Assembly (NCBI GenBank): GCA_030141605.1
Contig: JAQGDQ010000188.1
Coordinates: forward strand, 186,001 to 250,000
Direction: 5' to 3'
Source: Tubiluchus corallicola
Lineage: Eukaryota > Animalia > Priapulida
DNA: 64,000 bases
Within the stretch, counting starts at the first letter, position 1, and the number at the start of each line of letters is the position of its first letter. A program made the position numbers and the translations under genes. This document shows, one piece after another, positions 17,701-23,700 of the stretch. The notes below the pieces were generated by a model, which saw only the letters and a list, made by a program, of their open reading frames with translations, had not been told where the DNA came from and ran no database searches.

Positions 17701-20700
17701 TCGCTGGGAATTTTAGCTAACCGAATTATTTGAGGACGATTTGGAAATTTTTCATATACTCTCAGCCGCAGTGGCAGCTGCTGCTTAATGCTAGACTGCG
17801 CTTCTCGTAATCTTAACTGAAACAAATTAAAACAAATTATCTAAACAAAGAACGAAAACATTTAAATACCAGCAACAGCAACATCAAAATGCCAAACAAA
17901 TAGCATCATTAATGAATTAAATTACGGCGTAAAAGCAGTCTAAAAGACAATGGTAACAAAATTTTCAGATATTAATAATTCATTTTTCTTTCAATTAGAC
18001 TTTCATGAGCCAAAACACATTTTACAATAACATGCAGACCTAAACTACATAGTGTTACCTCGCTACTTCGCTGTTCGATTATCGTGGACTCGCTGATTCG
18101 CGGGTTTTCAAAATATTAATGTAAAATATTTATCGCGGTACTTTCGCTGTTTCGCGGGTTTTGGTGGTACTCCGTCTAAAGTATTTTTGCACATGCGTAG
18201 TACGTATTGCACAGTAATGTATAGATTTGATGATTGTTGCATAAAAAATCACAGAATATATAAAAAAATATTAATTCTAACATTAAAAGAATATTATACA
18301 TCATAAAAAATTACCATTTACAGTAAATAGTGTATTTATTCAGCGGATTAATACACACCAAAAAAAACAAAATGCAGTACTTGCGCCAGCTTGAGATGCT
18401 ACTTGCCGACGTGAGATTGTACACAACATATGATTGTTTGATTGATGGAAAGCAACCAACCAGAGAATGCTGCTCGGTATCCCAGTCGCTGATTGGCACA
18501 GGTACCGTGTAATTTGTTTTCTTTTGCTGTGCCCAGCTACCCCCTCTCAGCTCTTCCATTTCACGTTAGCATCCGACTGTCGCGTAAATAATGTATAACC
18601 ACTAAAATAAGTATAGCGTCCCTACTTCGCGGAAATTCACTTATCGCGGGTGGGCCTGGAACGGAACACCCACGATAAGTGAGGGAACACTGTAGTTTAT
18701 AAATAACTCGTGTCATTGACTAACCTGTTTCAGTTTTTTAATATCTTCATCCAACTCCAAGTTATCAAGAATGACGGCAACAAACAAGCTCAGTACAATC
18801 TGAAATATATCAACTCACTGTGAACAACAACCCACTGCAGTAACTGAGAGCTTCACATTTAAACAACTCTTACATTACACGTTTCTAATTAATTAGATAA
18901 AATATATCATTAATTCTCTCACAATGACAAATAAATTTAATTTGACAATATCAGTTAAAGCTACATTAGTAAACTAAACTAATGAGTAACTAATAAACTA
19001 ACAAGTGACCCAATACCTTTTATTTCACCTTACTTCTAGTATTACATATTTTCTTGACACAAGTATGCATTGAATTCATACTCACATGGAGTTTTTCAAA
19101 CGCAAATATAATTAATTATAGTTAATGGATAACTGCTATAAAAGAAATCTACATATGTCATCAAATATTTGTCCAGTATACGCAAACAAACAACATGCAA
19201 ACATCAATACATCCTATTTCTGTTATTACAGTTATTTATTCGTGAATTAGCTGCTTTCCAGAAATCTGTACAAAATGAAAATAATGTATTAGTAGCAACA
19301 CAATTTTCTGACAAACTTGTATGCTTCAAAATGCTGATGCACGCATTAGTGATTTAGCAGCAGACAATAAGCTGGAAATAGAAAAAACTGTTAGTAGAGT
19401 ACTCAGTATTATAAATACATAACACTCATTCAGCTAAACAGCATCTATGAGATGCAATTCAGCTAAATGACAAAACTAACATAAACAAGATGTGGAAATA
19501 CTATCTATTTAATTACTTTTAAAGTAAACAACTTTGACTTCATTCTGCTAACATTCATTAGACAGGTAACAAAATCACTAATTTAATGTAATAGTTATAG
19601 TTATTACCAAGCCACAACTAAAGAAATAATAAAATAAAAGGGAAAGAAAAGTATAAATCAGCCTCACACACACACATCTTCATAATTCTACAACCTTGTC
19701 AATGAAGCATTTGGCGGTTATACAGCAGGTTGTACCAACCCGTCGTCACTTGGCAAACAGGAAAAGTCGATCAGTAGGAGTTAGAACATGGGAACCATGC
19801 CCAAGCGAGGAAAGCATTAAGCTCATTTTACTATTCGCAAATACTTAACAATAAACATTATTCAAATATACAGAACACGGGGAAATATGCTAGTAATTTC
19901 AAAGTTACACTGAAGCACTATAATCTTGGTAGCAAACTATACAGACAAGGTATCGTACCATGGTACCAAAAAAGTGAACCAACATGAGGAAAAAGAGAGA
20001 AAACACAGTCACTGCTTGTTTGCCCGGTTCACTCATATTTAGTAGCTCTGCATGCTTTTCAAGGTACTTTAGTGTGTCATCTTTTATCTCAATCCAACCC
20101 TCCTGGGAGCCCATTTGAAACATGGTTTCCAAGGCCTGCATTGTAACAGCAAATACAGTGCAAGGTTTAAACAAATGCTTGGAAAACGCTTCAATACATT
20201 ATTTAACACAAGGACATTATTTTGATCGTTGGTTAACTTTGTGAATATCTAAGACCTGCTACTGGGTTCTGGGTAGAAGTAAAAGTTTTGGTTAAACATC
20301 AAACAGAAATTTGGATAAATAACAGGGAAACAGGATAATTGCGCGAGACCTAAACTGTTCTGAATACACCAAATCCAATCACTGCACTGAAAATAATAAA
20401 AATACATAAATAATTAAAACATTATATATAAGGACACTTTGGATGCTGAAAAATATTGTACAAATAAATCAGTAAATAAATAGCCGTTATTAGTACGTTG
20501 GAAAAGGTTATGATAAATGCACGAGAAAAACAAAAATCCATCCAATTTTCATACATATCAAATGTTGTAAATGCTAATTTACAAAATCTGATAAAAATGT
20601 AGTGCAATAATAAACTTCAAAATAAATAAGTAATGAAGTTGCTCATATTAGTAGAAAGGTTCACTTGCAAAATAATCATAGCAAAACCAGAATATATGAA

Positions 20701-23700
20701 GCGCTTAAAAACTAGTCTATAATGGACTATATGAGGTAAATGATATAAAATGGGCAAACTAAAAAAAATTCAGGCATATGTACAAACTACAAAAAAGATT
20801 CAACTTTTTCTGGGAACAGTGTACTAACTACAAAAAAAATATATTTCTGGGCATAGAATGATTTGCAGTTGTATGCATGATTCAAAACAAACAAAATTCA
20901 GCATCTTAAAAACACATTTTATATAGATAGAGCTCACAAACACTCTTCATTCATTTCATATAAGACTGGTTTTGTATGGTGAACATGTTACAGTGAGTGA
21001 TCAAACACAGCATTGGACTACATATGCAGCCAGCCCCAGTATCTGATTACCATTGTTGCGAATAAGTGGTACAAGGTAAAAACCAGCTCAACAATGATGT
21101 ATGGTGCTGTAGGACCGATGGAAGTAGCCACATCATCTTTAACTTCGACCCAACCTTCCTGGGTCAATATTTGGAACATTCCCATGAATACCTGCATGAA
21201 TGGTGTTAGATTCATAGGATAATTATGCAATTCAAGAATGATATAAAGCTCTGAAAGAAGCAAAGGTGCCACAAACAAATACACAGTTGCTCTGTAGTCT
21301 GCGATGAATACTCTACACACACAAGAAAAACTAATGTTAACTGCAGCTCTTTTACAAAATATGTTAAACCAGAAAAAACTTCCTTTAAATTTAAGTTGAA
21401 ATATAAAATAGTCGTTGCAGATTAATATGTAATGGCATCATATAACACGAAAATATAAGAGATAAAGGTTAATAAAAAGAAAATGAAAGTGGTAGTATCT
21501 ATAATTTTTTTCTTTCCATTAAACAGTGAATTAAACACATGGAGAAACTGTGCCACCACATACACATACACTTCATCTCCATAAAAGGCCCTGAAAAAAG
21601 GATGAAAAAAATATTCGTGATCACACTATTAGTAATAGGTAGAAATATGTACCAACACCAAGCATGCAATGTCTAAGTGCATGTAATAACTTTTTACTTA
21701 ACCTAAATCAATCACTACACTGCCAGAACATAATACATAAGCAAAAATGTTAACCAACAATCATAAAGTGAAATAGTCAATCAGCAAGATACAATGATAA
21801 CAAAAACAAGGTTGGTGTGTTAGCTTACCAATGTAATGAACATGTGATATAGGATGAAATAAATAGCAACCAGTGGTGCCACACCTTCTCCAATCTTCAC
21901 CATGGTGTCATTCATAATTTCTATCCAACCTTCTTGGGTCAAGATTTGAAACATAGACATGAGAGCCTACATTGAACATGCAACGACACGGGTTAGTACT
22001 AATTCTAAATCTTGTCAATGAAAAATTACAATTTTGTAGCAACCACAAGCAAGAACTTTAAATTCATCCTTTAACCAGTTGCTAACACTAGCAATTAGTA
22101 CTAATTTCATTTTAGGCAAACAAAAAATGACTAATTAATAAAAAAATGGTATTAGTAAAACTACCACTAATATCACAGTAACACGAGATTATTCATATCA
22201 GCAAGTGTTAAAGTTTAAATGGTTCAACTCAACAGACAGGGAAGAATTAATGACAGAGTTAATAAACTGCAATGGATGCTAGTCACTCACCCCACAAGGA
22301 CATAACTCATATAGATGAAAATGACAAGAAATTTTTTATTGCAAATGGCTACAAAAAGGTGAATAAGTGCCAAAAAACTTTTCATTTTTTCAAACAGTAC
22401 ATATAGTGTATGTAAAAACACGGTATTACATACTGCCCACTAACAATAACACTTTCATATGGATGTTCCCATTTACAAAAACGTAGCAATACATGTAAAA
22501 ACCTGCTAGTCGATACTATCAACTGTTCATGAAATTAACGTACAAAATGTTTTAATAAGGTAACAGTTCATACCTCAGGGAATGTATCGAACTTTTTCAA
22601 GTCAGAAACGTAACAGAACAGCTGTAGGGATATAGATGATGTAATGATCAGCAAAGCCATAGTGAAAATAATTAAACTACCCAGCTTTTTACCAGGACCA
22701 AAGATCTTGTAGACGAATTCCTCTAACATAGGAGATGCCTTAATGAGTCTCACAACTCGCAATACCTACCAGTATAACAATTATGAGTTGAAAGACTGAA
22801 GAAAAGTAGTAGTACTTTCCAATAAAGGCAAAAATCAATTGTCACAAATATGCATTGATACATGTCGATTATGCTTTTGATTGTTACGTATTATTTACAT
22901 CAAATCTATAGCTGGTGTTTGCTATCTGTGGAAAATTGTAAAAATTCTAATTGTACTACTGAACATTGGCATTTTATACAGAAAATAACAATTATAAATA
23001 TAAAATGAAAATTTCAAATAATCAAATACCAACTTTAAAAATTTTGTAAATGAGTACGTAAGATGAACAATTCCAATTTAAAGACAAGTTTAAGTAACAC
23101 TACGAAAAGTAAAATACAACAAGTTAGGTGCAAAGTGTTAGAAATTTCAACCTGAAAATATGTCAGCTGTGAATGGTAAAGTCCAGGTAAAATATTGAAA
23201 GTTGTGCCAATAGCCAGTAAGAGTTCAAACTTGTGAAGAGATCGACGGAAGTAACCACGGAAACCTAGACACCAGATCTTAAACAATGCCTCCAAATTGA
23301 ACAATATCGTGAAACCAACCTAAGTAACAATAATCACAAACAAATTGTGTGTGTGTACTAAATACTAAACATTTAGAAATAAACTTGAAGAACACTTAAC
23401 TAACACATTCACACTGAATACATATTCATCAAAATATTACCGTAAATTTTCAACAATGAAAATATTATAACATGTCAGTGTGCTCACCTCTGCATAATAA
23501 AATTTCTTTGTAAAGTATGCCCTGTCTTTTCCATTGTGTTCAAAACGAATGCTGCCTGCAGTTAATGCATTAGCCAGCACAAGGAACAGCATTATAATAT
23601 GGAAAACAGAAGACTGGAGGATACGCTGCAACATATTACAAAAATAATTCAAGAAATTATATTTTGAAAAATAGAATTGTTATTTCAATTACTTCAATAC

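Follow-up and report, generated by a model that had tools for sequence, protein, structure and literature searches.

Three glutamate-filter Domain II pore exons and a Domain III Glu/Lys exon pair in the NALCN gene of the priapulid Tubiluchus corallicola

The NALCN gene and its duplicated pore exons

We analysed 64 kb of the Tubiluchus corallicola genome (the window; contig JAQGDQ010000188.1 of assembly GCA_030141605.1, positions 186,001 to 250,000), the minus strand of which carries a gene for NALCN, the sodium-leak channel that sets resting excitability. A six-frame scan recovered four pore loops, that of Domain II (DII) in three copies and that of Domain III (DIII) in two; the pore exons of Domains I and IV (DI, DIV) are single. 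The coding exons supported by homology occupy 5765..29660 on the minus strand (the first exon is not fixed), and by tblastn the homologous exons run from about 29660 to 5765 and cover the whole protein. The filters read QEGW in DI, QEGW in all three DII copies, LEGW and FKGW in DIII, and GEDW in DIV. The product is a four-repeat channel with the E-E/K-E/K-E type of filter ring, and its best matches in the PDB are NALCN. The best named match of a conserved exon is in Priapulus caudatus (88%). In a 21-row tree, built from a quick search that included no kinorhynch or loriciferan, the gene pairs with that of P. caudatus with a Shimodaira-Hasegawa-like approximate likelihood ratio (SH-aLRT) support of 100 and 85% identity over 591 columns.

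The three DII pore exons lie on the minus strand between two constitutive exons: exon 14 upstream (22574..22765, minus strand; DII S4-S5, placed by tblastn and splice sites), which ends in phase 0, and exon 16 downstream (18725..18799, minus strand; the rest of DII S6, with a spliced joint at 17816-18725), which starts in phase 0. Copy a (21829..21966; 138 nucleotides, 46 amino acids) has the filter TQEGW and a methionine six residues after the filter glutamate (position +6; codon ATG). Copy b (21051..21191; 141 nucleotides, 47 amino acids) has the same filter and lysine at +6 (AAA, 21138-21140), and copy c (19959..20135; 177 nucleotides, 59 amino acids) has SQEGW, again with lysine at +6 (AAA, 20082-20084). 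The filter glutamate is encoded by GAA in a (21931-21933) and b (21156-21158) and by GAG in c (20100-20102), which bears out the initial annotation of a triplicated DII pore exon with no filter lysine. Each copy is bounded by AG (acceptor) and GT (donor), keeps phase 0/0, is free of stops, and has a length divisible by three. Exon a aligns to residues 543-588 of human NALCN (E 1.7e-20), and from this alignment residues are numbered E554, D558, M560 (position +6), D561, A576 and Y578. Copy c differs further in a GSQEGW approach to the filter and in a 13-residue extracellular insertion between P2 and S6 that contains an N-M-S sequon.

With their conserved junctions, the tandem copies cover the same 46-residue span over which crinoid and mollusc isoforms differ. 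Described duplicates of exon 15 usually differ by Glu versus Lys in the filter, as stated in the annotation and in agreement with PMC3557258; the classic order of an upstream Glu and a downstream Lys copy is not found here, all three filters being Glu. Searched with a profile built from 38 distinct exon-15 segments, the window yields a, b and c at E 2e-28, 7e-21 and 4e-17, followed by the pore loops of the other domains; this search revealed no fourth DII pore exon and rules out a hidden Lys-bearing one. Descent of b and c from the DIII exon is likewise ruled out, since both of their ends are of DII type and their profile scores lie far above those of the DIII exons. An assembly artefact is ruled out by the low DNA identity among the copies (50-55% overall, 68-75% over the first 65 nucleotides) and by contigs of run X1, possibly the assembly's own sample, of which one of 239 nucleotides covers exon b end to end with 0 differences and others match parts of a and c.

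The DIII pair was overlooked in the initial annotation, and it is exon 31b that supplies the filter lysine of this gene. Exon 31a (12283..12400, minus strand; 118 nucleotides) encodes LEGW and exon 31b (11856..11976, minus strand; 121 nucleotides) FKGW, so that the Glu copy is upstream and the Lys copy downstream, with intact splice sites, as in the known exon 31 switch. In run X2, which we took as RNA by guess and for which 11 CT..AC joints are listed, one spliced contig passes from exon 30 straight to 31b (joint 11975-12837, CT..AC) and skips 31a, the use of which was not seen there. Because the exons measure 118 and 121 nucleotides, double use or skipping of exon 31 would shift the frame; the P. 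caudatus RefSeq model holds both DIII copies in tandem. A further locus (L019, 8051-8950) has a single exon 15 together with a DIII pair, the Glu copy of which reads LEGY and lacks the near-invariant Trp. It is likely that the Na/Ca-type switch of this gene sits at exon 31a/31b. Since the DII copies are all Glu and DIII is either Glu or Lys, two filters are possible, EEEE and EEKE, and either can be combined with any of the three DII versions. As many as six pores (3 x 2) would result from splicing, likely differing in the size of the leak and in calcium block as well as in ion selection; from the exons present an EKEE or EKKE pore cannot be made.

Residue changes and constraint in copies b and c

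Copies b and c had been described as sharing a KDD motif. The lysine is indeed derived and shared, whereas the Asp at +8 is present in a too and the Asp at +7 is the human state (D561), found in 68 of 146 distinct homologous segments. At +6 these segments have Met (121), Leu (9) or Val (8) in 138 of the 146 cases, and Lys in two, both of them crinoid exon 15a. Among DII segments from 150 representatives (one row unparsed), Lys+6 occurs in 1 of 151, and in mollusc 15a the position is taken by Leu, Pro, Ser, Ala or His. The parallel drawn with an Arg at +6 in DIII holds for both DIII copies of this gene; more broadly, Arg is found there in 6 of 8 distinct DIII segments with a Glu filter and in 6 of 6 with a Lys filter, and the Glu copy of the DIII exon in the P. 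caudatus model has Lys at +6 instead of Arg. By these counts Lys+6 is unusual for DII, is not unique, and does not track selectivity.

The filter, the Trp, the acid at +4 and the S6 His are retained in b and c, and the near-invariant residues Tyr578 and Ala576 are lost. Tyr578, kept in copy a and in 134 of the 146 segments, gives way to Val in b and to Phe in c; Ala576 is found in 135 segments and never replaced by an acid there, and is Glu in b. Copy c has in addition Gly for Leu551 and Val for Tyr582, and with 51 residues between anchors exceeds all 146 segments (37-47) in length. Both crinoid Lys+6 exons also lack Tyr578, a coincidence of two lineages only. The upper-S6 differences of b and c from a may outweigh the lysine in importance. 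Human Y578S gives a higher current density and slower inactivation (PMC6692409). D558, the +4 acid of this exon, is reported to make a moderate contribution to divalent block, and D561 and K1115 to make none (PMC7182417). In simulation E275, D558, D561 and D1390 help to form Na sites, and FAM155A contacts the loops of repeats I, III and IV (both PMC7672056). Term searches of two NALCN structure papers turned up neither M560 nor R1121.

Constraint was assessed over 33 ungapped codons (the first 21 and last 12 of the exon). Identities at codon positions 1/2/3 were 21/26/18 for a-b, 20/27/14 for a-c and 22/25/11 for b-c, so that in all three pairs conservation is highest at second positions and lowest at third positions. 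In a neutral simulation of 20,000 draws, a fraction of at most 0.00075 reached the amino-acid identity observed. This pattern points to clear purifying selection on b and c at the protein level. The earlier suggestion that the copies are kept for another function is reasonable to this extent: because no copy has the filter Lys and b and c are constrained, their retention for a function beyond the Glu/Lys switch can be argued.

AlphaFold2 modelling of exon c (44 sequences) predicted helices at residues 2-9 (P1), 11-31 (an extended P2) and 36-58 (S6), with a mean predicted local distance difference test (pLDDT) score of 88. The insertion is predicted to lengthen P2 and S6 around a four-residue loop that holds the N-M-S sequon. 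A Foldseek comparison of this model with the PDB gave 0 matches at E 0.001, with NALCN (7sx3) at rank 7 (E 6.5), the piece being too short to inform. A weak search with exon c for longer proteins yielded five candidates and 0 matches.

Proposed role of the Domain II copies

We consider it probable that the three intact, selected DII exons, likely spliced singly, tune the size of the leak through gating, together with divalent block, and that 31a/31b sets EEEE versus EEKE. Regulated splicing would place one DII copy in each transcript, with b and c expressed and exclusive and a as the default. The filter Glu would be the same in every product and the outer pore helix and upper S6 would differ by copy, by which gating and divalent block would be tuned. 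Residue 560 is probably buried near 576 and 578, as judged from helix periodicity and column conservation, and its change from Met to Lys together with the loss of Tyr578 would repack the P2 helix against S6. In copy b the new Glu576 could pair with the Lys at 560; in copy c a longer, possibly glycosylated P2-S6 hairpin would stand on the pore side not covered by FAM155.

As adjacent homologous exons of compatible phase (138, 141 and 177 nucleotides, phase 0/0), the copies have the layout expected of mutually exclusive exons. The acceptors of a, b and c contain 6, 7 and 6 pyrimidines in 12 positions, and that of the RNA-used exon 31b, just as poor in pyrimidines, contains 6. A perfect TACTAAC, branch-point-like, lies about 25-30 nucleotides upstream of the exon a acceptor (21975-22010, minus strand) and fits a as the default. 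The introns between the DII copies are 637 and 915 nucleotides long. These lengths and the in-frame exons rule out the short-intron and frameshift-decay mechanisms of exclusion. A scan for docking and selector elements did not outperform shuffles (12 of 20 and 4 of 12), such a scan being weak without comparative genomes, and inverted repeats did not rise above shuffles.

Several observations weigh against the tuning of leak and block by singly spliced copies. With every exon length a multiple of three, frameshift decay cannot enforce exclusivity, and RefSeq models of relatives include double inclusion, for example in four of six Antedon isoforms. None of the three copies was seen in a transcript: no RNA source is listed for 19000-23000, the spliced contigs of run X2 cover other parts of the gene and not exons 14, a, b and c, and its exon-16 contig extends only about 4 letters upstream, too few to distinguish the copies; this speaks neither for nor against their expression. 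Orthologs of b and c were not found among the matches listed (120 of 216 and 150 of 274), nor in 43 loci, and the single P. caudatus model shows only an a-type exon. Copy c is very divergent, with the longest branch in the exon-15 tree, and the constraint signal may stem in part from past selection. The residue contacts come from helix periodicity and column conservation and not from measurement. With respect to double inclusion, crinoid and mollusc models P0004, P0005, P0146, P0159 and P0165 each include the tandem pair 15a/15b within a single chain, and models P0132 and P0162 skip both; these tandem and skipped models may be annotation artefacts or reflect loose splicing.

Some of these points would also be expected if one or both of the extra copies, c above all, were rarely used, decaying or non-conducting, at most lowering the number of functional channels when included. 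The absence of RNA support and of an ortholog speaks for such decay, as do the long branches (2.0 for b and 6.9 for c, against a median of 0.37), the lost near-invariant residues and the Pfam Ion_trans model, which at E 0.01 matches a but not b or c. Yet frames and splice sites are intact, third codon positions look saturated while second positions are conserved, the filter, Trp, +4 acid and S6 His are kept, exon c is still predicted to fold as P1-P2-S6, and scallop and Pomacea NALCN have the GSQEGW approach too, in their Domain I. We regard decay as unlikely.

Origin of the copies and comparison with known systems

The history of the copies was examined in an exon-15 tree of 52 rows and 46 columns. 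Exon a groups with two priapulid-type rows at 100/97 and is the ortholog of the P. caudatus exon. It represents the conserved type of exon 15, a type with Glu in arthropods and vertebrates; in molluscs, annelids and echinoderms this type is the Lys-bearing 15b, to which a is identical in 33 of 45-46 residues. Copies b and c, on their long branches, join crinoid 15a at 90/85, a grouping that vanishes once the filter and +6 columns are dropped. Approximately unbiased (AU) tests were compatible both with b+c (p 0.39) and with a+b+c joined to the priapulid rows (p 0.30), rejecting neither. The phylogeny that had been proposed as a check places a with the priapulid rows. The derivation of b and c from a second duplication, suggested on the strength of KDD, found no support: the identity of c to b (17 of 47 residues) does not exceed that to a (19 of 46), and the free tree does not join b and c. 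The sister claim is weakened because KDD reduces to one derived Lys that is also present in crinoid 15a; a sister relationship of b and c is at present unsupported.

Most likely, b and c would stem from tandem duplication in the priapulid lineage, at a time when the DIII Lys switch already existed. Alternatively, they could be survivors of an ancient bilaterian 15a, with a of 15b type, so that the priapulid would have kept both ancient cassettes; the question is partly independent of function. The identity of a with the type that bears Lys elsewhere and the joining of b and c to crinoid 15a agree with such an origin. However, that grouping joins long branches and depends on the filter and +6 columns, 46 columns are too few to decide, and the AU tests reject no arrangement. 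At locus L004 (147-1108), which resembles the echinoderm pairs, the two members of a canonical exon 15 pair lie about 820 nucleotides apart; the upstream one has the Glu filter, with Met at +6, and the downstream one the Lys filter. All 32 of the 43 metagenome loci that include both flanking exons have a single exon-15 copy. Since the divergent copies lie downstream of the conserved one here, the reverse of the order in known pairs (PMC3557258; L004), independent duplication appears the simpler reading, and we hold an ancient 15a origin to be quite improbable.

The nearest known system is the exon 15a/15b pair (EEEE/EKEE) of flatworms, molluscs, annelids, echinoderms and hemichordates (Senatore et al. 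2013, PMC3557258), which has the same exon and boundaries (P1-filter-P2-upper S6) and a tandem of one conserved and one divergent copy. The T. corallicola gene differs in having three copies, no filter Lys, and a conserved copy that is Glu and comes first, and in belonging to an ecdysozoan, a group for which the literature available to us lists only exon 31 duplication. The 31a/31b pair has the Glu-then-Lys order of the myriapod and chelicerate pairs (EEEE/EEKE; PMC3557258, PMC4436565), but lies outside the arthropods, as it does in the P. caudatus RefSeq model, and alongside a DII array. The exon 15 Glu/Lys pairs occur in lophotrochozoans, flatworms and non-chordate deuterostomes, and the myriapod and chelicerate exon 31 pairs are described as a separate event (PMC3557258, PMC4436565, PMC6259924, PMC4033012, PMC10120453, bioRxiv 2025.04.04.647097). 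Crinoid exon 15a (Antedon XP_071949640, Anneissia XP_033103835) combines a filter Glu with lysine at +6 and, like c but unlike b with its Val, has Phe in place of Tyr578; it is paired with a Lys-filter 15b, with a single DIII exon form seen, and the likeness is likely convergent.

Exons 12a and 12b of invertebrate Cav3 also provide alternative DII pore modules that alter permeation with the filter ring unchanged (PMC4436565, PMC10120453); they differ in belonging to another channel family, in encoding the S5-P1 turret upstream of the filter rather than filter, P2 and upper S6, and in that their function has been measured. By analogy with the turret Lys of exon 12a, Lys+6 might substitute for the filter Lys, so that b or c with 31a would form a Na-preferring, Ca-block-resistant pore despite EEEE. 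The lysine is rare, and more than one alternative exon with a Glu filter has it (crinoid 15a, P. caudatus 31a). Its place is between D558 and D561, two residues that contribute to Na sites in simulation (PMC7672056), and a DII lysine outside the filter alters Cav3 selectivity (PMC10120453), but a +6 column that is otherwise hydrophobic implies a packed side chain not facing the pore, DIII has Arg there with either filter residue, and a true filter-Lys exon is already present in crinoids and in this gene, all of which makes such a substitute very doubtful.

We return to the tuning of leak and divalent block by the DII exons. According to published accounts, one lineage duplicated exon 15 and another, separately, exon 31, in each case to exchange Glu for Lys. 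The presence of both cassettes in one gene, with exon 15 copies that are all Glu, suggests that exon 15 has been duplicated for more than a Na/Ca switch, and extends the exon 31 pair to priapulids. Three exon-15 copies, both cassettes in one gene, or priapulid NALCN splicing were not found reported in the open-licence literature, and the function of invertebrate NALCN pore isoforms is described as still unmeasured (bioRxiv 10.1101/2025.04.04.647097). The copies provide natural P2/S6 variants near a known disease site (M560K, A576E, Y578V/F and a 13-residue extension) that are testable in the reconstituted human complex. It is conceivable, though speculative, that the cassettes are independent, exon 31 picking the Na/Ca-type filter and the exon 15 array the gain; b and c would then be natural high-leak or block-resistant isoforms built on a Lys560/non-Tyr578 module (with Glu576 in b), reached independently by crinoids and paralleling in nature the gain-of-function site at human Y578. 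On this view the switch at exon 31 would also be older than the priapulid-arthropod split.

High-copy repeats lie within NALCN introns at about 10600-11250 and 17800-18700, where the summed contig depth in run X1 is in the thousands. Just upstream of NALCN, an intronless open reading frame for an E2F transcription factor (36081-37268, minus strand; 396 amino acids; Pfam E2F_TDP and E2F_CC-MB) was found. On the plus strand are exons of a purine-nucleoside-phosphorylase-family gene (46540-48633, with a PNP_UDP_1 match at 48244-48633) and of a DnaJ-family gene (62459-62836, with a DnaJ_C match).

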